Virus genome (UHGV): UHGV-0277504
Direction: 5' to 3' (one strand)
DNA from: a virus
DNA: 64,000 bases
The notes under the pieces are model-generated. The model saw only the letters and a list, made by a program, of their open reading frames with translations, did not search any database and was not told the origin of the DNA. The translations under genes were made by a program, and so were the position numbers. Shown here in pieces: positions 5,959-33,769 of this stretch. Numbering within the stretch: the first letter of the stretch is position 1; each line of letters opens with the position of its first letter.

Positions 5959-5982
5959 GGGTTATACCTCCTATATTTTTTA

Positions 5983-6228: not shown

Positions 6229-6274
6229 CACTTTCTATAAATTTCTTTAAATTTTTGAAAAAATAAGAGTTATT

Positions 6275-6478: not shown

Positions 6479-6531
6479 CTTTTAAAACCTCTTTCTTTTG
6501 ATAATTGATTTAAAATTCTATTTATAGTTTA

Positions 6532-6930: not shown

Positions 6931-6958
6931 CTATATTCACTCCATACTTAGTATTTAT

Positions 6959-7312: not shown

Positions 7313-7315
7313 TTA

Positions 7316-7534
7316 TTATTCCTCCATGTTTTTTATAATATTAATTATATCTAAGTACATATTAATATATTTATCCATTAATTTTAATTGTTTTTGGTAT
7401 AAATCTGTATCTATAGTTGAATCTATACTACAACATTGAGCTATAAAATCTTCTTTATAATTAACAATATTGGAAAGTTCCTTAAGTAATACTTCTATCG
7501 GTTCTCTTACATACGTTAATTTACTTTCGACCAT
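7316..7534 (-). CDS. hypothetical protein
   Basis: ORF. Confidence 0.45.
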   Translation of the reverse strand: MVESKLTYVREPIEVLLKELSNIVNYKEDFIAQCCSIDSTIDTDLYQKQLKLMDKYINMYLDIINIIKNMEE

Positions 7535-7554
7535 AATTGTGTTACTAACACTCC

Positions 7555-7848
7555 TTATTCAACTTCAAATCCATTTTTAACTAGTTCTTTTCTGAAATAC
7601 TTAACTGCTTCTACTGCTTCATTATAAGTATTTATATGTTCTTCCATTTCTTCTAATGCAAGAACACAAGGACTACTTGTTCCAATTTTGAAATATGTTT
7701 CTACATCCATATCACTTTTACCATAACCGTGAATATCTGTATGAGGTTTTGTTCTATCAATAGGTGTTACTTTAAGGATTCTAATATACTCACTCCCTAA
7801 TACTGTTAATTTATAGTTACCAAATTCCGTTTCAAATTGTTTTTCCAT
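7555..7848 (-). CDS. hypothetical protein
   Basis: ORF with RBS; TTGACA-like -35 upstream at about 7893. Confidence 0.5.
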   Translation of the reverse strand: MEKQFETEFGNYKLTVLGSEYIRILKVTPIDRTKPHTDIHGYGKSDMDVETYFKIGTSSPCVLALEEMEEHINTYNEAVEAVKYFRKELVKNGFEVE

Positions 7849-7936
7849 AATATCAATCTCCTTTTTACTTGTTAAATCAATCTTAACATATAAAAATTAT
7901 AATGTCAACAGCTAAATAAAAAAAGGAGTAGTTTTT

Positions 7937-8437
7937 CTACTTCTTTATTATACTAATATCTAAAAAATCATTATCTCTTATTTTATGGTTTTTAATATTA
8001 ATATTTTTATTATTTTCAAGACTAATTTTATCTCCTGATTCTATGTTTTTACTGTGTCTAGAATTAATAACATACAATTCATTTTTTGCATCTTTAAAGT
8101 ATATTTTTTGCTCTATTGCATCTCTATCATCTACTTTTGGTTCAAAGTTTTCTACTTCTGTTACTTTAGTATAACCTTTTGTTTCATAAATTTTATCTTT
8201 TACAAGTAAATAATTCATTGTTAAACCAAAGATAATAACACCAAATACTAATGGAGGTACAACTATAGAATGAAGTATAAAAGATGAAGATAATTTTATT
8301 TTTTCTACACTTAAAAAGAATATTGAAAAAACAATAATAGCAAATATAGATATAGTAATACCTTCTATAATAAGGTCAGTATTAAAGTTTTCTTTTAAAA
8401 ACTCAAAATAACCTATATCTACTTTATTTATATCCAT
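7937..8437 (-). CDS. hypothetical membrane protein (two TM segments)
   Basis: Hydrophobic stretches IIEGITISIFAIIVFSIFFL and VVPPLVFGVIIFGL. Confidence 0.5.
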   Translation of the reverse strand: MDINKVDIGYFEFLKENFNTDLIIEGITISIFAIIVFSIFFLSVEKIKLSSSFILHSIVVPPLVFGVIIFGLTMNYLLVKDKIYETKGYTKVTEVENFEPKVDDRDAIEQKIYFKDAKNELYVINSRHSKNIESGDKISLENNKNINIKNHKIRDNDFLDISIIKK

Positions 8438-8438
8438 A

Positions 8439-8696
8439 TTAAATCCTCCTTATACTTTTTAGTAACTCATTATACTCATAAGCATTCCCTTTAACTTTTG
8501 AATGTTCTAATAACGATACAATAGAATTTGAACTAGACTCACTTTCAAAGTCTTCTGTTGAAACATCTGTATGCTTAATTCTAAAATCAGATAAGTAGAT
8601 ACGCTCTTTTCCACCTACTAAATCAACATTAACTACAGCACAATAATCAATGAATTCTTTGTTTATTGTATTCCAAACTATATATTTAAAAGTCAT
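8439..8696 (-). CDS. hypothetical protein
   Basis: ORF. Confidence 0.45.
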   Translation of the reverse strand: MTFKYIVWNTINKEFIDYCAVVNVDLVGGKERIYLSDFRIKHTDVSTEDFESESSSNSIVSLLEHSKVKGNAYEYNELLKSIRRI

Positions 8697-8721
8697 TTAT
8701 ATTTAACTCCTTTTTTAATTA

Positions 8722-8922
8722 CTACTGATTAGGTAAACCAGCTTCTAGACATTCATTGTATGCTCTTTCGTTATCAATTTCTGTTCTATAATAATCAATA
8801 ATTTGTCCTATTTCAAGATGTGTCATTCTATTAATTTCACTCGCTTTATATATTTCCTCATTTCTTAAACCATATTCTTTTTGTAATCCTTGTACATACT
8901 TAATTTGTTTCTTTGTAGCCAT
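8722..8922 (-). CDS. hypothetical protein
   Basis: ORF. Confidence 0.45.
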   Translation of the reverse strand: MATKKQIKYVQGLQKEYGLRNEEIYKASEINRMTHLEIGQIIDYYRTEIDNERAYNECLEAGLPNQ

Positions 8923-8937
8923 TATAAACTAACTCCT

Positions 8938-9483
8938 TTACAAATTTAATTTTTTCATAAGTTTTTCAAAATCATTTAAACCATCTAATTCATCCATATT
9001 CTTAATATCTTGTTTTAAAATACTTAATGTTCGTTCTATTGGTTGAGCTACATAACTAAAATCTTCAACTTCTTTTAACTTCTCATAACCATATTTATAA
9101 GCACTTATTTTTTCTTCTTTGTATTTAAACCATATATCTTTATACCTATTATTTTCTTCCTTATCGATATCCTTTTTATATACTAGTTCTTTAATGATTT
9201 GTGTATAATCTAAAACTGAATCATCACTTGAAAAACTAGTTAAAGAATCATTGTTAATTTCATCAACATCTATGTTTTTTGTTATTTTTGACCAATCTTC
9301 CTTACTCAATGTTGTTGTATATTCTCTGCTTTTATCTCCCATAGAATTAGGTGGTTCTACAATATGAGCAAATCGACAATCTTTATTCATACATACCAAA
9401 TACGTTACACTTGTTGTTACACTTTCTACTTTATTACGCCCGCAATTAGGACAGTAATTATAATATCTTACCATTTTCATCAT
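8938..9483 (-). CDS. hypothetical protein with N-terminal zinc ribbon (CPNCG...CMNKDC)
   Basis: CxxC...CxxxC pairs in the first 40 residues. Confidence 0.5.
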   Translation of the reverse strand: MMKMVRYYNYCPNCGRNKVESVTTSVTYLVCMNKDCRFAHIVEPPNSMGDKSREYTTTLSKEDWSKITKNIDVDEINNDSLTSFSSDDSVLDYTQIIKELVYKKDIDKEENNRYKDIWFKYKEEKISAYKYGYEKLKEVEDFSYVAQPIERTLSILKQDIKNMDELDGLNDFEKLMKKLNL

Positions 9484-9890
9484 TCCTTTATTGTTTTAAT
9501 TATTATTACTATAACAGCTATTACAATAATTGTCAAGATAATGTATAGAAATAATATTGGATGAATAATACATAAAGATAATATTGAAAATGCACAACCA
9601 CATAATACATCATACAACAATAATTTATACCATTTAACTTTTTCTTCCTCATTAAAATAACCAAGAAAAACAATAGGTATACCAAAGACAGAAAAAAACC
9701 AAACCATAGCTGGTATGGTTAAAAAATATGATTGAATATTGAAATGATTTAATAGTAAACTAGGGAGTATTGCAATAAAGGATATTACACCAATTGTAAT
9801 GGCAAGTATAATCAAAACTAATAATACTAATATTAAAGGTAATAGTAAGTATTCCCACAAATTTTTAAATAATCTTTTAATAAAATTCAT
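9480..9890 (-). CDS. hypothetical polytopic membrane protein
   Basis: Four hydrophobic segments. Confidence 0.5.
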   Translation of the reverse strand: MNFIKRLFKNLWEYLLLPLILVLLVLIILAITIGVISFIAILPSLLLNHFNIQSYFLTIPAMVWFFSVFGIPIVFLGYFNEEEKVKWYKLLLYDVLCGCAFSILSLCIIHPILFLYIILTIIVIAVIVIIIKTIKE

Positions 9891-9913
9891 ATTTTCCTCC
9901 TATAATGTGTATC

Positions 9914-10150
9914 TTACCCTGCATCATAATGATTATCATTTAAATCATAATCGGCATCTTTAGGTCTAACCCTATCCCAATTTACACTTGCTTTAAACTT
10001 AGGTCGAAAATCCCCATTCCCATCAGCATATATAGAAACTGTTCTTGATGCGCCTAAGTCACCTAAATACTCCATCTTATCTAGCATTGACATAAATTCA
10101 TTAACCCATCTTTCTTCCATTTCAACTTCAATTGTAAATTTCTTTTTCAT
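9914..10150 (-). CDS. hypothetical protein
   Basis: ORF preceded by the conserved motif ACATACATTTTATAGGAGG. Confidence 0.45.
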   Translation of the reverse strand: MKKKFTIEVEMEERWVNEFMSMLDKMEYLGDLGASRTVSIYADGNGDFRPKFKASVNWDRVRPKDADYDLNDNHYDAG

Positions 10151-10176
10151 AATTATTTCCTCCTATAAAATGTATG

Positions 10177-10683
10177 TTATTCCCAGAAACCCCACTCATT
10201 ACTTTCTTTTTCTTTTATGGTATAGTCATAACTAACCTCAAAATTCTCACTATCAAGAAATTCTTTTAGCCTTTTCTTCCGATTTATTAAAACATGTAGA
10301 TTTCCATTCTTAGCAATTTGCGTGTCTTGATAACTATTTAAGTACTCGTTATCCCAATTCCAATCTACAAAATACTCCTCTTTTGAATTATCATCATATG
10401 CAACTTCTACACTTGCTATATCTGCATGTTGAATTAGTCTTTTAGAACAACTAAGGCTTTCTTCATCTTCTTCATCAAATAGACCTAAAGTTTTAATCGT
10501 TTCTGGATTAATAATATCAAAATAGATACTATTAGCAGTTTGGAGCTTAGCAATGCTATTGATTGCATTTCGTCTTACACTTATATCTATATCCGCAATA
10601 ATTATATTTGCTAAATGCTTGGTTGGAATCTTGATGTACTCACAATTTTCTAAAACTAATACTATTTCTTTTACTTTTGTCAT
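10177..10683 (-). CDS. hypothetical protein
   Basis: ORF preceded by the conserved motif. Confidence 0.5.
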   Translation of the reverse strand: MTKVKEIVLVLENCEYIKIPTKHLANIIIADIDISVRRNAINSIAKLQTANSIYFDIINPETIKTLGLFDEEDEESLSCSKRLIQHADIASVEVAYDDNSKEEYFVDWNWDNEYLNSYQDTQIAKNGNLHVLINRKKRLKEFLDSENFEVSYDYTIKEKESNEWGFWE

Positions 10684-10698
10684 ATTTTATTCTACTCC

Positions 10699-10860
10699 TT
10701 ATAAAATGTGTGTTTTAACGCCACTCTTTTCTTCAAAAAGTATCAATATATCTAAGTCTCCTATCGCACTAAACATTAAATTTCTAAAATGTTTCTTTTC
10801 ATCTGTTGACATATTTTCAACATCTCTCATCAGTTCTTTAAATATTTTTTCATAATCCAT
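10699..10860 (-). CDS. small hypothetical protein (53 aa)
   Basis: ATG at 10858-10860 preceded by GGAGGAGTAATT; stop overlaps the conserved intergenic motif. Confidence 0.3.
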   Translation of the reverse strand: MDYEKIFKELMRDVENMSTDEKKHFRNLMFSAIGDLDILILFEEKSGVKTHIL

Positions 10861-10886
10861 AATTACTCCTCCTAAAAGTTTTCTAG

Positions 10887-11195
10887 TTAAGTTAAATCAA
10901 TTTTATATAACTTCTTATTAATTTTATGTTCTTCAAATTTAAAACCTACACCCTTCTCGTAAAATCCCTCTAACTTAACTTCTACTGTCTTAGGGCTTAA
11001 AACATATCTAGTGCCTAAAGAATCTTCATAACTACCTTTAGTTTCAAGTAGTATTGTTCCTTTTTTTAGTAGGGTATGACAACCATGATTAGAGTATATA
11101 TCTTCTTTAACTACTTTATATTCTTCTATTTTGTTATCTAATAACCAACTATACATACTTTCTAGCACAATAGAATCTACATTTTTAACTATCAT
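10887..11195 (-). CDS. hypothetical protein
   Basis: ORF preceded by a variant of the conserved motif. Confidence 0.5.
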   Translation of the reverse strand: MIVKNVDSIVLESMYSWLLDNKIEEYKVVKEDIYSNHGCHTLLKKGTILLETKGSYEDSLGTRYVLSPKTVEVKLEGFYEKGVGFKFEEHKINKKLYKIDLT

Positions 11196-11329
11196 AACTA
11201 GCTCCTCCTATAAAATAATTCTTTTAATTAATTTTTTAATTTTATTAGTGTATCTAAATACTGTTTTAATCTATTAAAATAAATATCTTCTACATAATGT
11301 GCAGGAAGTGTCAAAGTTACTTTACTTCA

Positions 11330-11497
11330 TTACGTTATCACATATGTGCTACCTGAATGATTTAAACCTATTACCTTATCTTCAAATTTCTCAATGATTA
11401 ACAAAGGTAATTCTCCACCGATTTCATTACCTTTAAAAAATACTGATACAAAATCTCTTATTTCTAAATTATTAATATCTTTAATTTTCTCATTCAT
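11330..11497 (-). CDS. small hypothetical protein (55 aa)
   Basis: ATG at 11495-11497 with weak AGGA RBS; fills an otherwise empty 330-bp gap. Confidence 0.3.
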   Translation of the reverse strand: MNEKIKDINNLEIRDFVSVFFKGNEIGGELPLLIIEKFEDKVIGLNHSGSTYVIT

Positions 11498-11526
11498 AAC
11501 ATTTTCATCCTTATAAAATGTATGTT

Positions 11527-12036
11527 TTAAATTCTTTCAATTGTATCAGTGTTTAAATTCAAACAATATTTTACCTTTTTATCTAGTCCTCCTTTAGTGA
11601 AACCCTCGGATGTTCCTTGCCCTTGCATATAAAAATACTTAAACAGTTCATTATTGTATCGTAAGTATATATCCATACCGAAATATGTTTCAATATAAAA
11701 TGGAGGATATTCCATCACATTATCATTGTAAAAGTTATTGATATACTTACAAATAGATTCTAACTCTTGATGCATAAACTCTTCACTTGAATATAGATGT
11801 TTATACTTATCTTTATAGAGATACAGAATATCTTCTGTTGAGATACTTCCGAGTATCTCAATTGTCTCAGTAAACATTTTATTTAAATCAAAATCTTTGT
11901 TTTTAGCTTTCTTTAAAATTAAATTTCTTCTATTTTCTTTTTCTTTTAATCCATTATTAATGCTTTCTATTTGTTCATCAGTCATATTTGATATATTTTT
12001 CAATATTTTATCAAATTTGTCATCTATATTACTCAT
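11527..12036 (-). CDS. hypothetical protein
   Basis: ORF preceded by the conserved motif. Confidence 0.5.
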   Translation of the reverse strand: MSNIDDKFDKILKNISNMTDEQIESINNGLKEKENRRNLILKKAKNKDFDLNKMFTETIEILGSISTEDILYLYKDKYKHLYSSEEFMHQELESICKYINNFYNDNVMEYPPFYIETYFGMDIYLRYNNELFKYFYMQGQGTSEGFTKGGLDKKVKYCLNLNTDTIERI

Positions 12037-12068
12037 ATAGTATCGCTCCTTATAAAATGATTCTTTTA

Positions 12069-12263
12069 TTACCTCATATATTTATTCCTATTTACTGTAC
12101 TTGGTTTTGGTAGCTTATCAATGTCATATTGCTTTACATCTTCATGCATATATGTTTTTAATAATTTATCATTCTTTATAATGTATTTGCTATAATCTTT
12201 ACTACTATTAAATTCTAAATGGCTTTTATCTTTTAAATTTTCTTTTTTCTTACCTTTTTCCAT
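12069..12263 (-). CDS. hypothetical protein
   Basis: ORF with RBS, downstream of the promoter at 12295-12323. Confidence 0.45.
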   Translation of the reverse strand: MEKGKKKENLKDKSHLEFNSSKDYSKYIIKNDKLLKTYMHEDVKQYDIDKLPKPSTVNRNKYMR

Positions 12264-12294
12264 ATTTAAAACTCCTTTACTTTATTGTAGTCTA

Positions 12295-12323
12295 AGTATA
12301 TAACAAAAAACACCCAGTGTCAA
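12295..12323 (-). promoter_or_regulatory. sigma-A-like promoter TTGACA-N17-TATACT; -35 lies in the terminator loop
   Basis: Plus tgtcaa at 12318-12323 and agtata at 12295-12300. Confidence 0.5.
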
Positions 12324-12329
12324 GGGTGT
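12303..12329 (-). terminator. intrinsic terminator (acaccc/gggtgt stem, T-run on minus strand)
   Basis: Hairpin 12310-12315/12324-12329; plus-strand A-run 12304-12310. Confidence 0.55.
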
Positions 12330-12338
12330 TTTTATAAT

Positions 12339-13448
12339 TTATTCAATATATTCAATATTATCTTTAGTTTCTAATATACCTTTTGCTGTATTATATACTA
12401 ACTCAGGTTTATCTTCGACATCAAATGGAACAATGTTTTTACTTTTATCAAGTTCAAACTTTATTTTACTCATTAAGTCTTTAAAACCTACAAAATAACC
12501 TTTTCTTTCATCTAGATTATTCTTTTGATACGTGTATGTTCTATCAAAAGGTTTAACAAAGAATCTATAAGTATTTCTGCCTTTAACATAGTTAAATGAT
12601 ATTGCGTGACTTTCATAATATCTAATACTTGTTTCTTGTAAGATATAACCATTAATAGGTATTTTTGTAATACTATCAAAAGCATCTTGGAAATCAGATA
12701 AATCATATAATAAGTCATTTGTATAAGATTTAATAGTTTCTAATACATTATTTTCAGTAACAAATACGTATTTTAAATCACGAGTAGTAAAACTAGGAAT
12801 ACATATAGCTTCTTTAACATCTCTAAAATTCCCTTTAGAAGATAATATTATTTCATTTATTTTTTGTTCTCTATCAGGAACTAATCCTATAATTAAAGGT
12901 ATATTATTATATTTCAATTCTACATTAATACTCTGACTTTCTATAATATATGGTTTAACTATTTCTTTAATTTTTTGAAAACTTTTGATTTTATTCTCTA
13001 CAGAAGTTATATTATAGTTTATTTCTTTAAAAATAGAACTTAATGCTTTATGTGCTTTATAACCATCTAAAGTATAATCCAAATCATAAATACTCATTAA
13101 AAAATAAGATAAAACTTTTTTGTTTAAGCTATTATAAATTTCTAGATTTAAACTAGGATTTTTATACGAACAATCTAGTTTTAGTAAAAATTTAAAATTT
13201 TCATGTCCGTATTTACGTGTACGTTCAAGACTATACTTAGAGTAGTCACTAACTTCTACTAAATCAAAGTCCAAATCTTCTTTGATTTTATTTACTAAAC
13301 TTTTAGCAATATCATACTTGGAAAATAGGAACATATCATCTTTTTTCTTTATTGTTGGTTCTGGTTTAGACTCGAGAAATGCAAAAATTACACTAAAAAT
13401 AACTAAAAAAACTACGAAAACTATCATCATACCTAATACAATTTTCAT
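12339..13448 (-). CDS. hypothetical protein with N-terminal transmembrane anchor
   Basis: N-terminus MKIVLGMMIVFVVFLVIFSVIFAFL. Confidence 0.5.
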   Translation of the reverse strand: MKIVLGMMIVFVVFLVIFSVIFAFLESKPEPTIKKKDDMFLFSKYDIAKSLVNKIKEDLDFDLVEVSDYSKYSLERTRKYGHENFKFLLKLDCSYKNPSLNLEIYNSLNKKVLSYFLMSIYDLDYTLDGYKAHKALSSIFKEINYNITSVENKIKSFQKIKEIVKPYIIESQSINVELKYNNIPLIIGLVPDREQKINEIILSSKGNFRDVKEAICIPSFTTRDLKYVFVTENNVLETIKSYTNDLLYDLSDFQDAFDSITKIPINGYILQETSIRYYESHAISFNYVKGRNTYRFFVKPFDRTYTYQKNNLDERKGYFVGFKDLMSKIKFELDKSKNIVPFDVEDKPELVYNTAKGILETKDNIEYIE

Positions 13449-13501
13449 TATTTATACACTCCTTTGTAATTATTTTCATTAGTATCTTCTCCTTTTATTT
13501 T

Positions 13502-14011
13502 TTATGAAAATACATCTTTCATTTTGTTATAAGCATCTAATAGTTTATTATATTTTTGTTTAGAAATAGTTACTTTTTCTTGTATACTTGATTTTTTAAA
13601 ATGTTCTTCATAATCTCGTTTACAAGGTCTAACAATATAATCAATTTGTTTCTTTGGAAAGAGGTGTTTTTCTACGGGTTTATTTCCTTTACCATCTCTA
13701 TTTTGAGTAATAACAGCTACGTTATCAAAATTATGGTTGTAAACAATGATACCATTGAATCCAAATATAGATATTTTTTCTGATACAAATATATCCCCTT
13801 CTCTATAATCGTCAGTTTTTAATAATTCTTTGGACTTAATGATTTTCCAAGAATTAGGTAATTTCTCGTATTTCATTCTACTAGCATTTAACTTAGTTGT
13901 ATATTTATTTAAAGTTAATCGTTTTACATAATTAGATACTAGATTTGTGGATTGGTACCCATTAATATTGTTACTTTTTATAAATTTTCCTACGTAATCA
14001 TTTAAATACAT
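13502..14011 (-). CDS. hypothetical protein
   Basis: ORF. Confidence 0.5.
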   Translation of the reverse strand: MYLNDYVGKFIKSNNINGYQSTNLVSNYVKRLTLNKYTTKLNASRMKYEKLPNSWKIIKSKELLKTDDYREGDIFVSEKISIFGFNGIIVYNHNFDNVAVITQNRDGKGNKPVEKHLFPKKQIDYIVRPCKRDYEEHFKKSSIQEKVTISKQKYNKLLDAYNKMKDVFS

Positions 14012-14217
14012 GTTTTATTTTCTCCTTTATAAATTTTCTAAATGGTATTTGTAAGAACGTTTTACTTTGTTTAGCTCTTCTAATGCTTTATTTAAACATA
14101 CAGTATTGATAAGACCATTAGTGTCTAATTTTAAGTACTCTACATCAGTAATAATTCTTTCTAAAGAATTCACATACTCCTTTAATTGCTCTTCACTTTC
14201 CATTATATAACTCCTTT

Positions 14218-14406
14218 CTATATACCTAATGCTATTAAGATAAGGCTTACTAAGATAAGCACTACCATAATTAACATTATTAATAGAGGTATGGCTTCTT
14301 CTTTATTTCCATCTTTAAATAGTTTAATTACTTCTACTAAAACACTAAAACAAATAGCTAAGTAAAATAAAGCTAATACACTTGCTAAAATAATAAAACC
14401 TATCAC
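14218..14406 (-). CDS. small hydrophobic membrane protein (62 aa)
   Basis: Two hydrophobic helices; RBS AGGAGG. Confidence 0.45.
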   Translation of the reverse strand: MIGFIILASVLALFYLAICFSVLVEVIKLFKDGNKEEAIPLLIMLIMVVLILVSLILIALGI

Positions 14407-14435
14407 TTTTACTCCTCCTTATTTATTATATATAA

Positions 14436-14464
14436 ACTATAACATAAAAAAAGACCCCTGTCAA
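14436..14464 (-). promoter_or_regulatory. sigma-A-like promoter TTGACA-N17-TATAGT; -35 lies in the terminator loop
   Basis: Plus tgtcaa at 14459-14464 and actata at 14436-14441. Confidence 0.5.
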
Positions 14465-14472
14465 TAGGGGTC
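14445..14472 (-). terminator. intrinsic terminator (gacccct/aggggtc)
   Basis: 7-bp GC-rich stem flanked by an A-run (plus) that gives a T-run on the minus strand. Confidence 0.55.
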
Positions 14473-14523
14473 AGTAAAAAATTTTAATACTATTTTAGAT
14501 TAACAATCGGTTCTTTATCTATA

Positions 14524-15336
14524 TTATTTATGTCTCATATCTAATATAGCATTTCCTGAATCTGGTAATGTGATAGGTGTATCACCTTTCCATTTTTCAA
14601 TAAGTTGTTTTTGTAGTAACTCATCTGTTAATGATTCTTCTACAATTTCATTTGCTTTCTTAGTACCTTTTGCTTCAATTTCTTTACGTTCAGCTTCTTC
14701 TTTAGCAATTTGTTTGTCAACTTTCTTTCTCTCTAATTCTTGATTTGCTTTAACACGACTGTCAATTGCTTTTTGAGTATTTTTATCTGCTTTTGGAGAA
14801 CTTAAAGCAATATCTTCAACAATAAAACCTTGACCTTTAAGATTTTCTTCAAGTTTATCTAAAGTAGATTTTTTAATTTCACTTGTTTTAACACCGAAAG
14901 CATCAATTACTGAGTATTTAGAAACAGATTGACGTACGTTATCTTGTACTCTTGAACGTAAATAACCTTTTTCTAGCTGTTCAATATCTGCACTACCAAA
15001 ACGATTAAATAATTCAACTGCTTTTGAGCTATCAACTTTATAGTTTACATCAATATCTAAATTAAGGTTTTTACCATCTGACGTTGATACATTCATATCT
15101 TTGTAGCTGATAGTTTGTGTTCTTGTAGGATATTCATTTACTCTGTTCATAGGTGCTACTAAGTGCCAGCCAGGACTTAGAGTATTATCCTTAACACCTT
15201 TAGGTGAGTATACAACACCTACTGTTCCTTGCGGTACTCTTTCAATACTTAGAAACGCAATTATAATTGCTACAACAATAATAATACCGCCTATAGTTAA
15301 TCCTAAACCTGCTTTTACTTTACTTTCCATAATCAT
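14524..15336 (-). CDS. SPFH/band-7 (stomatin/prohibitin-like) membrane protein
   Basis: N-terminal TM, then VPQGTVGVVYSPKGV...LSPGWHLVAPMNRV...TSDGKNLNLDIDVNYKV typical of the SPFH fold; coiled-coil C-terminus. Confidence 0.7.
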   Translation of the reverse strand: MIMESKVKAGLGLTIGGIIIVVAIIIAFLSIERVPQGTVGVVYSPKGVKDNTLSPGWHLVAPMNRVNEYPTRTQTISYKDMNVSTSDGKNLNLDIDVNYKVDSSKAVELFNRFGSADIEQLEKGYLRSRVQDNVRQSVSKYSVIDAFGVKTSEIKKSTLDKLEENLKGQGFIVEDIALSSPKADKNTQKAIDSRVKANQELERKKVDKQIAKEEAERKEIEAKGTKKANEIVEESLTDELLQKQLIEKWKGDTPITLPDSGNAILDMRHK

Positions 15337-15605
15337 TCTCCTTTTTTAATATCTTTATGAAGTTTTTTTAACTCCGATATTTCTTCTTCAAGTTCTTTAA
15401 TTTGAGATACACTCGATGTTGATGATTCTAATGCTTCTTTTTCATGGTTTTTTAATTCAATCTCATAGTCAACCATTTTTAATCTCTTATTAATTTCTCT
15501 TTTCTCTATTTCTTTCCTTACATACTCAAATAGCTTAGTTGCTCCAATAATTATACCTAGTATGATTACTACAAAAATTAAAGCAACTAATAGTAACCAA
15601 GCCAT
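15333..15605 (-). CDS. small membrane-anchored coiled-coil protein
   Basis: TM at the N-terminus, charged coiled-coil tail; 4-nt overlap with the SPFH gene. Confidence 0.45.
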   Translation of the reverse strand: MAWLLLVALIFVVIILGIIIGATKLFEYVRKEIEKREINKRLKMVDYEIELKNHEKEALESSTSSVSQIKELEEEISELKKLHKDIKKGE

Positions 15606-15673
15606 ATACCTAACCTACTTTCTTCTCTTTAACTATTCTTGTTTAAGTTTATCTTTTTGTTCAGGTGTTAACA

Positions 15674-18010
15674 TTAACTATCTCTCCAAACTTGATTTAT
15701 TTCATTATGAGTTCTTCCTGTTTCATTTTTTGCAAATTCTTCTTGCATTTTTCTTAAAGTGATAATATCTGTATTCTTAAGTTCTTTTCTAGTTAAATTA
15801 GAATAATCACGAACCCAGTAATAAAAAGCTCTTAAACTTTCGTTTTCTTGTAAAATTCTTTGAATAGGTCGTCTATCATTACCTTTAGCTAAGCTTTCTA
15901 CGATACCTCTCATGTATTTCCAGTCATTATAGTACTTAGATTTATACTTAAACATAAAACCATTTGAATCTTCAAATACATATCCTTCATGTTTAATATC
16001 TAAAGAGTTATGATTATTCTTATACCAATCATAAAACTCTACCCAAGTATCGAACATAAGAGACCATGATTTAAAAGGTACTCCGATAGATAAAGCAAAT
16101 GTATAAGTATTGGAATAACTTTCTTTTTTGAATTCTAAAGTATTATGAATAATATCTAATAAAACGATATGACTTTTATCATATTCAATGATATGTGGGT
16201 CGTTTTCAATATCAATAACTTCAAACACTAAAGTTCTATCATGTTCTTTAAGATACTTAACGATTGTTTCTACTTGAATATCATCAAACTGCTTATCAAA
16301 TAAATCTTTAAACCATAGAGCATAATCATTATTATGCTTACTTAAATGTGTTTTTGATTTACTACAAAAGACTAAATCATCAATGTTAGAATCAAAGTAA
16401 ACTAAACCTAAATAACCATTCTCTTTTTTATAACCATATAACGGAAATTTAATAATATCAGGTAATGCATCTAATTTTGTCTCAGGTCTTTCATTAATAT
16501 TGAAAAATTTATTATAACCTCTACCTAAAATTTTATTTACTAGAGTATCAATAAATAATCCTCTAGCACTTACTGTTAATTGGTTCCATCTTTTTTTATC
16601 AAATGCTTTTTTAGTAAAGTTAACAGATACTACATAATTGTACTGTTCAATGACTTTGATAGATTTTTTCTCTTCTTTAGCTAAATTTAAATATTTATCT
16701 ACTGTTAAATCTTTATCAATTGATTTTAAATAGTCTTCATTAACTAAGAACTTATGATTAAATTTTTCATTTTTAATTAATACAGGGTCGATACTATTAT
16801 TACTGTTAATCGTTACTGCTCTTAAGTAACCACCTTTTTCGACTCTACCTTCTAGATTAATAGAATTTTTTGTTAAATCTAAACGTTCACGATATAAATT
16901 TCTATGACCGTGAATCTGAATAACTGAACTATCTTTCCATTTACTGTCTACATCAAATTCATAACTACCTACACCATTAATAAGTTGATGTGTTGATACT
17001 TTATTTAAATTATCTAACATATTAGGTAAGATACCACCATGATTAATAACATAGTATTGTCCTCTATAATTAAAGTATAGAACTTGTTGTAAGTTTCTTA
17101 AAATAGCACGTACTCGTTTAGGTGTAATACCATTATCAAGGAAAGATTTTAACGTGTAAACAAAACCTCTAGCTTTAAATACATCTAAGACTAATTTAAA
17201 TAACTTACTAAAGTCATCACTCACTTTATGAAGCTCTTCATACGTATCTGTATCTAAGTGAGCATACCTACGTAAATGTCTTTCATGATTACCTTCTAAT
17301 AATTCTACATTGTCTAAGTTATGGATAAGTTCTAAATAATCAAAAGTTTCTTTAGGTTCTAAACCTCTATCAAAATAATCTCCTACAAAAATAAATAATT
17401 CATTAGGGTGGTCTACAATGTAGTTGTAACTAGCAAATTCATTTAAAGCTGTGAAACAAGAATGTACATCACCGATAACATGAATTTTATCATAATGATT
17501 TACTTCCATAAAATCTTTATCCCACTCAAGAGAACTTAATACTTCTTCAGGTTTTAATTCTTTTGCAACACTAGGAATATGTTCATGTTGTAGTCTTTCA
17601 TAAATATTCTCAATAACTTCTACAGGAACTTGTTTTAATTTTTCCCTTTGGTTATTACGTTCAATTAATGTATCTAAGTCTTCTTCTAAGGTTACTACAT
17701 AAACACGATAACCGTATACTTTAGCTAACTTCTCATATCGTTTAATTAACTTACCTGTAGAGTGTGTAGCATCAATTACAGTAAATTCACCATTACTCAT
17801 ACGATTTTCTAAAATTTCAAATAATGTTTTCCAAACTAGATTATCTTTATCTTGAGTAATCGCTATTCTACCTTCTTCATTATAGATAGGTGAACCGAAT
17901 TGTAATCTTAAAGTGTCTGGACTTAATGTGTAATTTTCTAGTCCTTTCTCTTTAATAAAAGTAGATTTACCTACACCTGGTACACCTCTCATTAATAATA
18001 ATTGTTTCAT
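15674..18010 (-). CDS. Pnkp-like polynucleotide kinase-phosphatase with C-terminal ligase-like domain
   Basis: P-loop GVPGVGKST (T4 Pnk-like kinase), calcineurin-type motifs GDVHSC/GDYFDRG/GNHE, C-terminal KENG adenylyltransferase-like motif. Confidence 0.6.
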   Translation of the reverse strand: MKQLLLMRGVPGVGKSTFIKEKGLENYTLSPDTLRLQFGSPIYNEEGRIAITQDKDNLVWKTLFEILENRMSNGEFTVIDATHSTGKLIKRYEKLAKVYGYRVYVVTLEEDLDTLIERNNQREKLKQVPVEVIENIYERLQHEHIPSVAKELKPEEVLSSLEWDKDFMEVNHYDKIHVIGDVHSCFTALNEFASYNYIVDHPNELFIFVGDYFDRGLEPKETFDYLELIHNLDNVELLEGNHERHLRRYAHLDTDTYEELHKVSDDFSKLFKLVLDVFKARGFVYTLKSFLDNGITPKRVRAILRNLQQVLYFNYRGQYYVINHGGILPNMLDNLNKVSTHQLINGVGSYEFDVDSKWKDSSVIQIHGHRNLYRERLDLTKNSINLEGRVEKGGYLRAVTINSNNSIDPVLIKNEKFNHKFLVNEDYLKSIDKDLTVDKYLNLAKEEKKSIKVIEQYNYVVSVNFTKKAFDKKRWNQLTVSARGLFIDTLVNKILGRGYNKFFNINERPETKLDALPDIIKFPLYGYKKENGYLGLVYFDSNIDDLVFCSKSKTHLSKHNNDYALWFKDLFDKQFDDIQVETIVKYLKEHDRTLVFEVIDIENDPHIIEYDKSHIVLLDIIHNTLEFKKESYSNTYTFALSIGVPFKSWSLMFDTWVEFYDWYKNNHNSLDIKHEGYVFEDSNGFMFKYKSKYYNDWKYMRGIVESLAKGNDRRPIQRILQENESLRAFYYWVRDYSNLTRKELKNTDIITLRKMQEEFAKNETGRTHNEINQVWRDS

Positions 18011-18027
18011 AATTACCTCTCCTTTTA

Positions 18028-18291
18028 TTATTTAATACTAATAAATTCTATACTGTTTAAAGGTACCCAAACATCGTCTTCTGTTGAATTACTTGCAAAA
18101 AATAGTGAAAATGTATCAGCGTCACAGTTTTTTAACAACTTAATAAGACTATCTCTCTCTTCAATTGAAACATTAATATCCATATATTTCCCACTTTTTA
18201 GAGCTACTGTGACTTTATATTGTTTTTCTTCTTTAAAATTTTCCATATTATTCATTGAAATATCTCCTTTATTTTTTGATATATACATCAT
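18028..18291 (-). CDS. hypothetical protein
   Basis: ORF. Confidence 0.45.
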   Translation of the reverse strand: MMYISKNKGDISMNNMENFKEEKQYKVTVALKSGKYMDINVSIEERDSLIKLLKNCDADTFSLFFASNSTEDDVWVPLNSIEFISIK

Positions 18292-18616
18292 ATTTAGTGT
18301 CTAATTCTCTATGACCTGTTATGAAATAAATTTTACTTTTCTTTGATACTGTATATGTTGTTTTCTTTATATAACTTTTATTACTCTCATGTGCTTTTAC
18401 GTCAACAGAAGATACTGATGCTATTTCATTGAATTGTTCTGCTGAAATTACTGATACATTTTTATCTTTTAAAGCTACTTCTTTAGGTAAAATAATAGTT
18501 ACTCCTATTAGTAAAATACCTATAAATCCTAAAAATTCAAAACTTTTTTTTCTCTTTTTTATCCCTACGTACCATGATACTACTGTTAGAACTAAAATAA
18601 TAAAATAAAAAATCAT
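18269..18616 (-). CDS. hypothetical membrane protein
   Basis: Two N-terminal TM segments. Confidence 0.45.
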   Translation of the reverse strand: MIFYFIILVLTVVSWYVGIKKRKKSFEFLGFIGILLIGVTIILPKEVALKDKNVSVISAEQFNEIASVSSVDVKAHESNKSYIKKTTYTVSKKSKIYFITGHRELDTKYDVYIKK

Positions 18617-18669
18617 AATTTACCTCCTTTAACTTAACTATAAACTATAATAACTTTTTTGTCAAGTAA

Positions 18670-19239
18670 TTATTTAAATTCTGATAAATCTTTATGTACT
18701 TCGGTAGGTTCTAGGTAGTATTTTTTAGCTGTTTTAGTTATGCCTATTAGTTTATCATTTGTGTTATCTTTATCTACAATCAAACTATTAATTTGCTCTT
18801 GTATAATATTTTTCGTATTAGGGTTCTTTGTTTTAATTTTACTTATTTCTTTTTCATAAATTTTAATTTGAATATCATTACGTTTTTTGATTAAAGGTCT
18901 AACTTCTTTATTTAACTTACGTTTAATAAAATCACTAATATCATCTCTAGTATCCTTTATAGATTCCCAATCAGCTTCATTATCACTCATAATAGTAATA
19001 ATATTTAAGTGTTTATCAATAACAAGTTTATGCTCTTTAAATACATAAACTTCTCGACCCTTTTCTTGTTGTGTGACATAAGTAGCTTTATTTAAAGCTT
19101 TGGCTACCCACTCTTTTGCTTTTTCACGTGATGAATTTTCTACCCTCATTAAAAATCTTTCATAAGCATGGTTAGTTATATTCACATGCTTACTAAGTAT
19201 AGGTTTTTTTCTTTCCACTATATTTAGCATGTTTAACAT
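18670..19239 (-). CDS. hypothetical protein
   Basis: ORF with RBS; TTGACA-like -35 at about 19288. Confidence 0.5.
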   Translation of the reverse strand: MLNMLNIVERKKPILSKHVNITNHAYERFLMRVENSSREKAKEWVAKALNKATYVTQQEKGREVYVFKEHKLVIDKHLNIITIMSDNEADWESIKDTRDDISDFIKRKLNKEVRPLIKKRNDIQIKIYEKEISKIKTKNPNTKNIIQEQINSLIVDKDNTNDKLIGITKTAKKYYLEPTEVHKDLSEFK

Positions 19240-19322
19240 CTCCTTATTTGTTATGTCTTAATGATACTATAATTTATATTAGATGTCAATACTTTTTATA
19301 AAAAAAGAAGTGTAGTTTTATA

Positions 19323-19646
19323 CTACACTTCATCTACTACGTTTTGTGCTTCTTTAAACATTGTATCTTCTAAGTTATAAATCTCACTTAAAGTAAATTG
19401 CAATGTGTCACTAATTCTAGATAGTGCAATTCTTTCAGTAACTTTAATATTTAATTTAGTAAAATGTTGTTTTACTAGTCCGTTATCTGTTTCTAATACC
19501 GTATCTCCATTAACTTTAATTACAAATTCGTTATTATCTTTGAGTAGTCGTAATGAACCTACATCAAAAGATTCTAACAATTTAACAATACTATTTAAAA
19601 TACTTAATTCTGATTCTTTTAATACTGATAATTTTTCATTATTCAT
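19323..19646 (-). CDS. hypothetical protein
   Basis: ORF. Confidence 0.5.
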   Translation of the reverse strand: MNNEKLSVLKESELSILNSIVKLLESFDVGSLRLLKDNNEFVIKVNGDTVLETDNGLVKQHFTKLNIKVTERIALSRISDTLQFTLSEIYNLEDTMFKEAQNVVDEV

Positions 19647-19649
19647 ATA

Positions 19650-20150
19650 TTAATTCACTCCTTCTTTGTAATGAATTGAATAGCCTTCTACTTGAGATAA
19701 TAAGAATTCTAAATCTACAGTTGAGTCATGTTCTTTAAACTCGATTAAAAATGTATTATTTCTATCACTTTTAAATGCATGTTTGAATTTATTAATCTCA
19801 TTTTCTAAACTATAAACATCATTTTTATTTACTTTAATAACTTTACCACTCTTCAAGTTGATAACGAGTTCGGTTGGTCTTTTAATGATGTCAGCATATG
19901 TTTCTATTTCTCTCTTTTGTTTTTCGTGATACTGAATTACTAACGTTAAATCAGAACCTTTTAGACCTTCCTTATTAAAGTTAGCATTTAAGTCATTACC
20001 ATTAGATAATGTGACATGATTGTCTAGTTTTCTACTTTCTCTAATAATTAAGTCCTCATCTTGTAAATGAATAATGATACTTCCTTTACGTACTTCATAA
20101 TTATATCCATACTGGCTTAACTTATCTTCAATTAAATCTTGATACAACAT
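19650..20150 (-). CDS. hypothetical protein
   Basis: ORF. Confidence 0.5.
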   Translation of the reverse strand: MLYQDLIEDKLSQYGYNYEVRKGSIIIHLQDEDLIIRESRKLDNHVTLSNGNDLNANFNKEGLKGSDLTLVIQYHEKQKREIETYADIIKRPTELVINLKSGKVIKVNKNDVYSLENEINKFKHAFKSDRNNTFLIEFKEHDSTVDLEFLLSQVEGYSIHYKEGVN

Positions 20151-20210
20151 TATTTTTTCAGTTCCTTTCTTATAAGAAAAACAAGAAAGGTTTATATTAA
20201 GGTTGATAAA

Positions 20211-21443
20211 CTATATGTTTACCCTTATTAATAATGGTTTACTACAAACCTCTACAAGGTTTGAGAATAACTTCTCATTCCATGCTTCTTGTTTTTCTAA
20301 ATATTTTCTTAATATATTTAAACTACCATTTAAGTCTGCATTAATTAACTTTCCTTCTTTACTCTTATACAATCCTCTTTTAACTCTTTTACCAGAGAAT
20401 GTAACTATATTCTTTTTAGAATCCCATATAGGTATTTCATCTAAATCAAGAAAACTAGATTTACTAGTATAAGATTCTTCCTGTAGAATGATATTGATTC
20501 CTTTTTCTTTACATTTATAAGTAAGTATTTGTATAAGTGTATAAAATGGAATTTGAATAAAAGTCTGTTTACTAGATTTTCTCATTGTTGTGTCTTGTTT
20601 CCACCCTTTGTTATAGCCTATGACTAAGGTATTAACTTGGTTTGAAACTAGTTGATTCACAACATAATGAGTAGACTTATGAAAGTAATCTTTTACTTTA
20701 TTCATTCTTTTCCTGTGAATACTACATAGTCTATGACTAGACTTTTGTCTATTCAATTTCCAAAGCAACTTTTTGTTTCTTGCTAATAACTTATTATAAT
20801 AAACATTCATGCTTTTAATTGGTTTACCATTAATAATAAATGGAGTAAATACGTTAGATGATACAGTCATTAAGTTATTAATTCCTAAATCTATACTAGC
20901 ATATCTACCATTATCTTTTTTCTTTTCTTTTATAAGTTTATTATACCCTATCTCAAAAACAATATGATTACCTTTAGGAATAATCCTAACAAATTGAACT
21001 TCTTCTTTAGTTAAGTTTGTTTTAATAAAAATATTTGTTTTTGATAAGTGGATATAGCCTTTACGTTTAACAAAAGAAATAGCTTTCTTTTCGTAATGTA
21101 CAATTTGTTTTCCATTCTCAGTATCTAAATATTTAGGTATTCTTGCAAAATACCCTTTCCTTCTTAAATTGAAAAAAGATTTAAAATTTTTATCTACTAA
21201 CCTTTGTGTACATTTAGATACTTTAGCAGGCAAAGCTCTATAGTCTGTATTATTAGAATGAGTAAACTGTTTATTAACATCATAATACCTTAGATACTTT
21301 TTATTTTTAAAGTAATACTGTCTTACTGCATAAAGTGTAGCATTATAAAGGTTTTTACTTAAAAAACATAAGTTATCTGCTTCTTTATATCTATTATCTT
21401 GTGTTGTTATTTGATGTTGTTCTACTCTAGTTTCATACTTCAT
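20211..21443 (-). CDS. tnpB: IS605/IS1341-family TnpB-like RuvC nuclease (no zinc finger)
   Basis: RuvC-I ASIDLGINN, C-terminal YTSKSS...NADLNGSLNILRK signature of TnpB/OrfB; cysteines of the zinc finger absent. Confidence 0.75.
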   Translation of the reverse strand: MKYETRVEQHQITTQDNRYKEADNLCFLSKNLYNATLYAVRQYYFKNKKYLRYYDVNKQFTHSNNTDYRALPAKVSKCTQRLVDKNFKSFFNLRRKGYFARIPKYLDTENGKQIVHYEKKAISFVKRKGYIHLSKTNIFIKTNLTKEEVQFVRIIPKGNHIVFEIGYNKLIKEKKKDNGRYASIDLGINNLMTVSSNVFTPFIINGKPIKSMNVYYNKLLARNKKLLWKLNRQKSSHRLCSIHRKRMNKVKDYFHKSTHYVVNQLVSNQVNTLVIGYNKGWKQDTTMRKSSKQTFIQIPFYTLIQILTYKCKEKGINIILQEESYTSKSSFLDLDEIPIWDSKKNIVTFSGKRVKRGLYKSKEGKLINADLNGSLNILRKYLEKQEAWNEKLFSNLVEVCSKPLLIRVNI

Positions 21444-21568
21444 TTTTCTAAATTTTTACTTTCCTTATTTAATTCAGACTTTTTTAACATAATACTTATC
21501 TCCTTTCTTATTTATAGTATAGCATAAACTAAGAAAAAAGACAAGTATTTATTTGTTTTTTTTACAGT

Positions 21569-21931
21569 TTATTTAAACTGATTTTCCACCTTTTTCTTTA
21601 TTAAATTATCTATATCAGGTTCATTAAATGATTTAATAATGTATCTACCTTTTTTGTTAAAAATAACATCAAAGAAACCATCATCTTGTAACCTAATAAC
21701 TGCTTCAATATTAAACTGCTTTAACTTCTTAAATATTTCTGTTGTCATAGGAGCCTCAAAAACAAAAACTACATCTTTATTTTTTTGTTTATTAACATGT
21801 TTTTTATTGAAGTTTGTAATACTACCATAACATAATTTATTTTTCTTGTCAATACCTTTAAAGTATTTTTTCATAGAATCATTTAAGTATGGTTCTTCTT
21901 GTTTTTTATACGGAAATGCTACTATAATCAT
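21569..21931 (-). CDS. hypothetical protein
   Basis: ORF. Confidence 0.5.
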   Translation of the reverse strand: MIIVAFPYKKQEEPYLNDSMKKYFKGIDKKNKLCYGSITNFNKKHVNKQKNKDVVFVFEAPMTTEIFKKLKQFNIEAVIRLQDDGFFDVIFNKKGRYIIKSFNEPDIDNLIKKKVENQFK

Positions 21932-33438: not shown

Positions 33439-33769
33439 AAATAATTTTGATTTTATGATTTTTATCCCTTACAAAAATATCTGAATAATGTATTGTTCTA
33501 GGTACTTTAACTGTACTATTTTCATATCTAAGTAATGAATAGCCTCCTACCCATCTATCTGAGACATAATTAATATACATTACATTAGAATCAGTGTGAG
33601 GGAAAGTACCCTCTTCAACAATTACTGATTCATTATTATCTTTTACTTTTTGAAATTTTTTAGCAATACTAATATACTCTCTAGGTGTTGTATCTTTTGA
33701 ATTAGATTCACTTAAAGATTGTTTTACTCTATCTATATTTTGGTCTATTAAATTATAACTATTTGTCAT
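33401..33769 (-). CDS. hypothetical protein
   Basis: ORF. Confidence 0.45.
   Translation of the reverse strand: MTNSYNLIDQNIDRVKQSLSESNSKDTTPREYISIAKKFQKVKDNNESVIVEEGTFPHTDSNVMYINYVSDRWVGGYSLLRYENSTVKVPRTIHYSDIFVRDKNHKIKIIFEGANPYEEEQR

Follow-up and report, generated by a model that had tools for sequence, protein, structure and literature searches.

A tnpA-less TnpB element of IS607 lineage in a Sepunavirus genome as a candidate RNA-guided homing nuclease

Why would a virulent phage keep a gene for TnpB that has no transposase gene beside it? The question arises in a stretch of 64,000 nucleotides of UHGV virus genome UHGV-0277504 (the window), which derives from a Sepunavirus (Herelleviridae, Twortvirinae), a virulent Staphylococcus epidermidis myophage, and which carries a tnpB gene whose product could be an RNA-guided nuclease or have a role resembling that of a homing endonuclease. 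We conclude, at a probability of roughly 0.7, that the locus is a tnpA-less element of IS607 lineage lodged between two translationally overlapping phage genes, and that it most likely encodes an RNA-guided homing nuclease directed against the uninterrupted allele of its site. This reading supposes that TnpB would cut DNA, that the sequence flanking the element would supply the guide, that a short RRTG motif would act as target-adjacent motif (TAM), that the element would home, and that translation of tnpB may be coupled to that of a small upstream open reading frame (ORF). The unusual features of the locus, a missing zinc finger, the small upstream ORF and a hairpin after the stop codon, have ordinary evolutionary explanations: they are a clade trait, the stump of a tnpA gene and the terminal stem of the guide RNA (ωRNA).

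The element shows presence/absence polymorphism at one fixed site. It is found in Staphylococcus phage Quidividi (98.3% identical over the region) and vB_SepM_BE04 (96.7%), while the other 18 of the 20 listed Sepunavirus relatives (of 21 matched) match the flanks only; these empty-site phages include Twillingate, phiIBB-SEP1, phiIPLA-C1C and 80A. Six other sites occupied by sister elements are polymorphic in the same way. The span 20151..21568 proposed by the sequence-only reading is indeed the gap between the flanking phage ORFs, but the empty sites place the true insert at different coordinates, with boundaries that are ambiguous by 1-5 nt because A-runs and a TG occur in both target and right end. 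Read on the tnpB strand, the empty site is AAGAAAAAGGTGGAAAAATAATGTTG and contains a TAATG stop/start overlap of two phage genes (Twillingate_170/171). Through the insert, the C-terminus of the upstream protein changes from VEK-stop to VENQFK-stop, and the downstream gene (19650..20150) is parted from its AAGGTGG Shine-Dalgarno sequence. The element is 1.43 kb of selfish DNA that lacks tnpA and keeps an intact TnpB and a guide RNA, and is thus of an already known kind; the homologue in Quidividi is labelled "IS605 OrfB transposase subunit" in GenBank.

About 20158/9..21585/6, minus strand: whole inserted element, 1428 bp (alignment of occupied and empty alleles).
20211..21443, minus strand: tnpB, 410 amino acids, with RuvC residues D185, E322/E323 and D370, RuvC-III motif NADLN and no C4 zinc finger (ORF, profiles, alignment, model).

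The call of a TnpB gene is well founded. The 410-residue product matches OrfB_IS605 (PF01385, E 1.9e-22, 80.1 bits against a curated cut-off of 30.5), Cas12f1-like_TNB (PF07282, E 3.8e-10, 40.2 against 26.3 bits) and the NCBIfam model guided_TnpB, "RNA-guided endonuclease TnpB" (NF040570, 161.6 against 100 bits). The RuvC triad is in place, its RuvC-I and RuvC-III signatures as had been noticed: D185 (in IDLG), E322/E323 (in QEESYTSK) and D370 (in NADLNG), and in an alignment of 94 family members that are 53-89% identical, D185 is conserved in 93, and E323 and D370 in all 94. The zinc-finger CxxC pairs are absent, as claimed, but they have not been "lost" from this copy: no family member (0/94) has a CxxC between RuvC-II and RuvC-III, each having 0-2 cysteines there, so on the alignment the missing zinc finger is a lineage trait ancestral to the family and not a sign of decay. 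With catalytic residues that are near-invariant and a zinc-finger absence common to the whole family, the copy cannot be called divergent either. Zinc-finger loss in large branches of TnpB has already been noted in a survey (PMC10691335), which also gives the NADLN motif as a hallmark of the major clade of "derived TnpB".

Structure prediction gave no indication of a disrupted RuvC site. The AlphaFold2 model, made with the family alignment, is confident (mean predicted local distance difference test 90.5, predicted template modelling score 0.85) and has the triad residues at canonical positions: D185 and E322 lie at the ends of strands 181-186 and 317-322, respectively, and helix 369-384 has D370 at its start. 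Residues 323-351, the former zinc-finger segment, are without regular secondary structure, yet fairly confident. Foldseek against PDB retrieved AsCas12f (E 7.6e-17), ISDra2 TnpB (3.2e-14, target-normalised TM-score 0.69), the IS607 TnpB of ISFba1 (5.3e-14) and a mimivirus Fanzor2 (2e-12). By its residues and fold, TnpB is predicted to be an intact nuclease. The ratio of nonsynonymous to synonymous substitution rates (dN/dS) is 0.10-0.15 among the tnpA-less phage copies, and TnpB has therefore been maintained by selection after the loss of the transposase.

The family to which this protein belongs is very large, with 7993 of 8000 scored candidates at E<=0.001, and most of the 120 listed matches are 53-61% identical and 394-417 residues long. 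Large phage contigs often carry members: IMG/VR has at least 302 confirmed loci, and many of these lie on contigs of 100-440 kb. In species-representative genomes 249 loci were confirmed, the closest in metagenome-assembled genomes (MAGs) bearing the labels Moraxella, Lachnoclostridium, Ruminococcus and Dechloromonas; cyanobacteria and Ktedonobacteria have more distant multicopy sets. Because relatives carry a serine-recombinase tnpA immediately upstream (a full gene on the same strand in 36 of 164 related loci), we assign the family to an IS607-type lineage, which has this architecture (PMC13565253). The window copy keeps a 16-codon remnant at the place of tnpA, no tnpA was found anywhere in the 64-kb window, and by these features the element is a non-autonomous TnpB element of IS607 lineage. 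The same pattern of decay is seen on contigs of Okeania sp. MAGs (L021-L035; loci of relatives are cited by such numbers), of which L035 has a serine-recombinase tnpA and several others have tnpA deleted; in these the left end is ~125 nt long and begins with AGTATTG, and the right end closes with AACTAT.

The remnant and the signals in front of it are as follows.

21440..21490, minus strand: 16-codon ORF, vestigial tnpA with its first 8 and last 8 codons fused, MLKKSELNKESKNLEK and stop (ORF, homology to tnpA termini).
21499..21505, minus strand: AAGGAGA, former tnpA ribosome-binding site (sequence; kept with the start of the tnpA remnant in L164, L175 and L179).
21516..21544, minus strand: promoter-like site, TTGTCT, 17 nt, TG-TATACT (consensus scan; kept in L164, L175 and L179).
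21545..21586, minus strand: left-end region, a GAAAAT stub and then CAGTTTAAATAAACTGTAAAAAAAAC... (common to elements at two other sites).

The 16-codon ORF had been described as an upstream ORF with a strong ribosome-binding site and a stop overlapping the tnpB start, and each of these elements is in place: its ATG lies at 21490-21488 and its TGA at 21442-21440, the latter overlapping the tnpB ATG (21443-21441) as ATGA, and AAGGAGA stands 9 nt before its start. The origin of the ORF can be read from relatives. In L165, whose TnpB is 72% identical, a 213-residue tnpA product with Resolvase and helix-turn-helix (HTH, MerR-like) domains is encoded by a gene whose stop overlaps the tnpB start. 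The 87%-identical L164, as well as L175 and L179-181, has a 38-codon ORF (MIKKSELNTEYYKPGYIANLCSKLYELRSNRESRGLEK and stop) at the same place with the same ribosome-binding site and ATGA overlap, and since the 38-residue L164 peptide aligns to both ends of the L165 TnpA, at residues 1-20 (55% identity, E 5e-5) and 191-204 (E 0.011), this ORF represents an in-frame internal deletion of tnpA. The 16 codons of the window, MLKKSELN plus KESKNLEK, form a deletion nested within the 38-codon remnant. By homology, then, the "upstream ORF" is the stump of a deleted tnpA gene of the IS607-type serine-recombinase kind. The promoter-like site is predicted from 9 of 12 consensus matches and an extended -10, and the left-end region, common to L164/L175 and L179-181, is truncated or absent in four other elements. 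The Shine-Dalgarno sequence of tnpB itself, 9 nt before its ATG, is GAGG in L164, AAAA in the window and AAAG in BE04; because it has degenerated, the tnpB start may be reached mainly by ribosomes that terminate at ATGA, and translational coupling from the small ORF to tnpB is plausible from this arrangement.

Downstream, the element ends in a structured RNA.

20158..20290, minus strand: ωRNA scaffold, ~130 nt, four stem-loop arms and six helices (fold, covariation, covariance model).
20164..20190, minus strand: terminal 10-bp hairpin, arms CCTTTCTT/AAGAAAGG (sequence, minimum free energy fold).
20158..20165, minus strand: motif at the very right end, GGAACTGA, with AACT[AG]T as family consensus (no conservation beyond it at any locus).
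20202..20218, minus strand: inner hairpin across the tnpB stop codon (compensatory swap relative to Quidividi and BE04).

The scaffold overlaps the last 26 codons of tnpB and runs to the right end, where the window element reads ...GGAACTG(A). The hairpin noticed after the stop codon exists, with 10 bp in the minimum free energy fold, but lies at 20164-20190, 2 nt below the coordinates first given (20166-20192). Reading it as a terminator was rejected, there being no T-run and no terminator-like site called; on fold and position it is the last stem of the ωRNA and right end. The 133 nt ending at 20158 fold at -33.5 kcal/mol (z -3.84), with none of 200 shuffles as stable, and covariation likewise points to a conserved 3' RNA structure. 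RNAalifold on a MAFFT alignment of 49 right-end regions, made without any structure fitting, recovered helices P1 and P2, in which 7 of 10 pairs have double-sided changes (e.g., UA/CG/AU/GC at one pair). In eight close relatives the share of cells that pair is 92.9%, compared with 40-48% in controls with slid partners, and a covariance model built from these eight (R1) gave full-length matches at the tnpB 3' end in ~55 of 80 loci, ending at independently called right ends. In the R1 alignment every one of the 40 pairs has double-sided changes, and pairing holds in 92.7% of cells (33-50% in slid controls); the pair count is biased towards structure by the fitting of the model. The 3' end of the scaffold coincides with the empty-site boundary at 20158. 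Neither of the two outcomes named as refuting the sequence-only reading, a disrupted RuvC active site and the absence of a conserved 3' RNA structure, was observed. Across the family a hairpin ends 0-3 nt before AACTRT in 47 of 57 loci, with 41 distinct 3' arms, a statistic that is partly circular as the ends were picked with a hairpin criterion: motif-based picks had miscalled several loci, and hairpin-aware picks and then the covariance model were used.

The window and Quidividi elements differ at 11 nucleotides, and six of these differences form a stem swap at 20202-20218 (UAAAC/GUUUA versus UAAGU/ACUUA) in which pairing is kept. The swap exchanges two base pairs and changes the C-terminus from RVNI-stop to RVSL-stop, and the window form is that of the L164 element from another phage genus, a hint that element copies have exchanged sequence. 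The C-terminal peptide that the family conserves most, EAWNEK[I/L]FS...VEVCS.P, is encoded by helices P1 and P2 (20240..20290, minus strand), so that these bases are constrained both as coding sequence and as RNA.

Rfam gave no matches at gathering thresholds in the whole window and nothing at E<=0.01 in 16 relatives. At permissive E-values, a search of 651 nt returned RF02998 (IS605-orfB-II) at 20158-20284 with 23.4 bits and E 0.13, the other matches being chance ones to miRNAs and snoRNAs. The RF02998 match is collinear over the full model (1-155) and shares the CAUG start, a UAGAGG...CC helix, the terminal hairpin and a GAACUGU 3' end; however, because its score is far below the gathering score of 88, we regard the window ωRNA as a related but distinct class or a very divergent branch. 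A large phage subgroup of the TnpB family at ~44% identity (L124-L163, IMG/VR, mostly sample 3300045988) has a right end in which the hairpin is followed by ATAATCACCT and not AACTRT, and R1 matches L145, L130, L134 and L124 weakly (E 0.014-0.11, few subgroup members having been searched); this subgroup is probably a distinct ωRNA/TAM subclass.

What the RNA might target can be approached from insertion sites. We compared seven independent sites of close relatives (TnpB 78-100% identical) in Staphylococcus Twortvirinae phages, the empty allele in each case coming from another phage.

21587..21590, minus strand: GGTG, TAM-like left flank, part of the original Shine-Dalgarno sequence of the downstream phage gene (RRTG at 7/7 sites).
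20138..20157, minus strand: predicted guide-encoding flank AAAAATAATGTTGTATCAAG (analogy with TnpB and IS607 systems, PMC13565253, PMC11061315).
Window site: left flank AAAAAGGTG, target GAAAAATAATG.
L164 site: left flank TTTGTAGGTG, target AGTAGATGG.
L166 site: left flank GAATATGGTG, target AGACATGAG.
L084 site: left flank TTTAAATG, target TAGTTGAG.
L179 site: left flank CCTTAGTG, target ACTAAAGGAG.
L178 site: left flank GTAAAGTG, target ATATATTAC.
L177 site: left flank GTGAGGTG, target TACACACC.
21581..21586: left-junction stub of the window element, GAAAAT.
About 1873..1882: left-junction stub of L166, TAGAATGA, an exact copy.
About 993..1000: left-junction stub of L179, ATTAAA.
About 1347..1388: left-junction stub of L084, a diverged ~38-nt copy of a terminator hairpin.

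An RRTG motif stands directly 5' of the target at all seven sites (GGTG at four, AGTG at two, AATG at one), and at four of them it is the Shine-Dalgarno sequence of the downstream gene. At each site, homology between the right-end flank and the empty allele extends leftwards through a shared TG and is lost at R(G/A) in the target, opposite (A/G)(C/T) in the right end; by a rough estimate from ~28% G+C, a TG at a fixed position is expected in ~5% of cases in such AT-rich DNA. From this pattern RRTG looks like a TAM or a recombinase core. Left flanks of the multicopy Okeania elements (ATAG, CTTC, TATA, GGTG) gave no TAM consensus. The downstream phage gene begins within the predicted guide flank, which holds its start codon (20150-20148) and first codons, and the identical 20-nt sequence follows GGTGG in empty-site phages; by analogy it would serve as the guide. 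Compared with the empty allele, the 20 nt that follow the right end are identical at 20/20 positions in L178, 19/20 in L084 and 19-20/20 in the window, depending on whether the final A is counted with the right end.

Left junctions are less uniform. Partial repeats of the target (its first 6-38 nt) follow RRTG at four of the seven sites, while L178 and L177 have clean left junctions and L100 has a similar 10-nt repeat. The window insertion can be read without any duplication, though with a 6-nt target stub at its left junction, and family-wide there was no excess of a target-site duplication signal over control. Such stubs could possibly originate from a circle junction carrying a previous right-flank stub, from one-sided repair of a TAM-distal TnpB break, or from selection restoring an upstream stop or terminator.

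How would such an element persist? L164/L175 and L179-181, which occupy different sites, have an intact left end and the same 38-codon tnpA remnant in common, and the window element, at a third site, derives from such a remnant by a nested deletion, so an already-deleted element has moved; for these three elements the simplest route is TnpA provided in trans. Four further copies (L177, L166, L084, L178) have a truncated or missing left end and a conserved tnpB and right end, and L177 has only ~50 nt from its junction to the tnpB ATG and no promoter of its own. Because TnpA cannot act on such copies, selection must act on TnpB and the ωRNA, and because a virulent phage without a transposase has no excision to "restore", cleavage of the empty allele followed by recombinational copying is the remaining known benefit.

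We hypothesize that transcription would proceed through the right end into the flank, that TnpB would bind the ωRNA scaffold, and that ~20 nt of flank would become the guide. The sole DNA joining RRTG (here GGTG) to that 20-mer would be the uninterrupted allele of related phages. In a co-infected cell TnpB would then cut this allele, and recombination with the element-bearing genome would copy the element in (non-restorative homing); alternatively, cutting would at least penalize a competitor phage. The element's own right-end junction reads ACTG, one base from RGTG, and the donor locus would therefore be spared from cleavage. The small ORF would most likely serve only to deliver ribosomes to a tnpB ATG whose Shine-Dalgarno sequence has decayed. 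TnpB homing has been put forward as a concept (PMC10055086) and a TnpA-independent plasmid gene drive by TnpB has been described (bioRxiv 2025.02.20.638934), while a 2026 review (PMC13565253) calls phage-to-phage TnpB homing theoretical. The papers that our searches turned up give experimental support for chromosomes and plasmids only, and none of them reports TnpB homing in phages by experiment.

The flanks themselves offer weak evidence. The 2 kb on the low side of the window element are identical to the empty-site phage Twillingate, and on the high side the window groups with Twillingate/SEP1, and Quidividi and BE04 with BE05/Terranova; these haplotypes are compatible with homing. Several observations weigh against homing, or at least complicate it. 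There is no clear co-conversion tract in the flanking single-nucleotide polymorphisms, which are sparse and lie in mosaic backbones, and ordinary recombination of such backbones could explain why the element is present on two haplotypes. Elements with intact left ends could instead spread through TnpA supplied in trans. If the right end finishes in ...CTG, guide position 1 is an A that mismatches the G of the empty allele, and a perfect match in the window requires that the final A be counted as right end. The target repeats at left junctions are predicted neither by simple homing nor by serine-recombinase insertion. The geometry of the catalytic triad is judged from the secondary-structure positions of a model alone, and the weak Shine-Dalgarno sequence of tnpB in the window means that expression may be low.

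Homing has to be set against the view that the element is a passive hitch-hiker, placed by TnpA that a full-length copy in another phage or in the host supplied in trans, and since distributed by transposition and ordinary recombination, with a TnpB that is useless in a virulent phage or acts only in classical restorative homing after excision. Intact left and right ends in the window, L164 and L179, the same deleted derivative at two sites, as trans-mobilization predicts, the existence of full-length relatives with tnpA and the strong mosaicism of phage backbones all fit this view, but it does not account for a dN/dS of ~0.1 or for the perfectly conserved ωRNA and right end that persist in L177, L166, L084 and L178, which lack a left end or promoter, nor does the window supply a tnpA; we consider it unlikely. 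Less probable again is that TnpB serves mainly as a weapon with which the carrier phage destroys co-infecting competitors that have the uninterrupted site, the benefit going to the phage and not to copying of the element. The targets, Shine-Dalgarno/start-codon junctions or terminators of conserved phage genes that are unchanged in many relatives, would suit a weapon, as would the presence in this genome of LAGLIDADG genes and of another, independent TnpB element, and interference between phages mediated by an intron endonuclease, cited in PMC13565253, is a precedent. Yet such a role is compatible with homing rather than exclusive of it, and since the phages are 95-99% identical around the site, breaks should be repaired from the element-bearing genome, giving conversion and not loss.

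Two further alternatives concern parts of the element. That the 16-codon ORF is functional itself, as a micropeptide or a selected regulatory leader, gains something from its strong ribosome-binding site, from the ATGA overlap and from its retention in all three Sepunavirus copies, but we find this very improbable: the two substitutions in BE04 are both non-synonymous (S5P, N13D), the ORF has 38 codons in L164, L175 and L179, and it is absent from L084, L166, L177 and L178, in which tnpB is intact. The BE04 substitutions and the ORF-less sister elements argue against selection on the peptide, and a dedicated leader ORF was rejected given that the two halves match the tnpA termini and are a nested deletion of the 38-codon remnant. 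We give the least credence, close to none, to a TnpB that is nuclease-dead or re-purposed, whether as a TldR-like RNA-guided repressor or as a rearranged enzyme of the RIIIr-4 type. The phage context and the missing zinc finger recall RIIIr-4, a zinc-finger-less clade reported as virus-enriched, in which the RuvC-III aspartate is replaced by histidine (PMC10691335), whereas here the catalytic D, E and D are near-invariant and the guide-encoding position is a transposon flank and not a host promoter. Membership in RIIIr-4 was itself rejected, as the histidine hallmark is absent and NADLN is retained.

A bolder version of the homing hypothesis, which we offer as speculation and think doubtful as a whole, is that these cassettes are natural, transposase-free RNA-guided gene drives among virulent staphylococcal myophages, cutting RRTG-plus-guide sites that are often the Shine-Dalgarno/start-codon junction of conserved genes; that the target copies at left junctions are scars of capture dependent on TnpB breaks, such that TnpB and not TnpA colonizes new loci; and that the small ORF has been co-opted as a translational coupler setting TnpB dosage.

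Comparison with known systems places the element near several of them. Close relatives resemble IS607 in that the stop of a Resolvase+HTH tnpA overlaps tnpB, terminal inverted repeats are apparently lacking and a short G-containing motif lies beside the insertion, and non-autonomous derivatives recur, as in the Okeania and phage copies. IS607 ends, however, terminate in GG, with insertion at or downstream of GG (PMC13565253), whereas the window copy is without tnpA, its right end is ...AACTG(A/T) and the shared core is apparently TG; across the seven sites the left flank is GGTG(G) at four and AGTG or AATG at three, and right ends are CTG/TTG(+A/T), not GG. Partial target copies, present at several left junctions, are not known from serine recombinases either. 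The RAGATH-18-guided IS607 TnpB of ISFba1 (PDB 8IAZ; PMC11061315) is likewise associated with a serine recombinase, is of similar length (~390-410 residues) and fold (Foldseek E 5e-14) and has a G-rich TAM resembling a Shine-Dalgarno sequence. It differs in that its right element RNA (reRNA) is separate from the coding sequence while the window ωRNA overlaps tnpB, in its TAM (AGGAG or GAGGG for RAGATH-18 versus the TAM-like RRTG here), and in that the window-family sequence profile does not retrieve 8IAZ at E<=0.01; assignment to the RAGATH-18/ISFba1 type was rejected, with no RAGATH-18 match at the gathering threshold or at E<=10 and an ωRNA that overlaps coding sequence.

The best-characterized sequence homologue is ISDra2 TnpB of IS200/IS605 (PDB 8EXA, 8H1J, 8BF8; profile E 1.3e-8, TM 0.69), which shares an ωRNA overlapping the 3' end of the gene and, as predicted here, a guide from the right flank, but has a Y1 TnpA partner, a C4 zinc finger, DRDxN and a TTGAT TAM, where the window protein has NADLN and no zinc finger. 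Phage homing endonuclease genes of the T4 Seg/Mob and I-TevI type are similar in their fixed-site polymorphism between conserved genes, in having the uninterrupted allele as target, here a presumed one, and in leaving flanking genes expressed, and LAGLIDADG genes occur in the same genome; recognition here would instead be guided by RNA (a 4-nt motif plus a ~20-nt guide) and not by protein, and descent is from a transposon. The plasmid gene drive of IS605 TnpB (bioRxiv 2025.02.20.638934) offers a parallel, since it depends on TnpB and not on TnpA to spread into the vacant orthologous site of a co-resident replicon, but that behavior was shown by experiment, for plasmids and a Y1-type IS, while for the phage element we infer it.

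The homing hypothesis is well motivated and can be tested directly with available phages. The locus and its sister insertions form a natural system for RNA-guided phage-to-phage homing with no transposase to confound it, in which cultivable phages with the element (Quidividi, BE04) and without it (Twillingate, SEP1, IPLA-C1C) share site and target, and a candidate 4-nt TAM and a defined ωRNA are at hand. The locus also illustrates that an apparent upstream ORF at a gene start can be the evolutionary stump of a deleted upstream gene. As an annotation the element is ordinary, and its compact TnpB clade (410 residues, no zinc finger, RRTG motif) may interest genome-editing work.

The window has a second tnpB gene at 58061..59167 (minus strand), encoding 368 residues with HTH_OrfB_IS605, RuvC, two CxxC pairs and DRDIN. 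The two copies had been called unrelated, and they are: BLASTP between them gives E 0.05 and their RuvC-III motifs differ (NADLN versus DRDIN). They were rejected as paralogues on these grounds and for the lack of an R1 match at the second copy. The second gene lies in a ~1.3-kb insertion between genes for a DnaB-like helicase and an HTH regulator whose distribution among Sepunaviruses does not follow that of the first element: BE25, 80A/B, BE04, 110, IPLA-C1C and BE05 have it, Twillingate has part of it, and Quidividi, Terranova, SEP1 and BE06-09 lack it. In S. aureus phages there are copies with 84% identity.

Two other genes of the window have a similar look. A LAGLIDADG-domain ORF (34834..35802, minus strand) adjoins a RecA-like ORF (33766..34686, minus strand) that covers the C-terminal part of the RecA profile only, which suggests a recA-like gene split by an intron- or intein-type homing endonuclease. 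The ORF for the ribonucleotide reductase large subunit (47431..48585, minus strand) ends after ~212 of 523 positions of the barrel-domain profile, and this gene too is probably split, by an intron or the insertion of a homing endonuclease.

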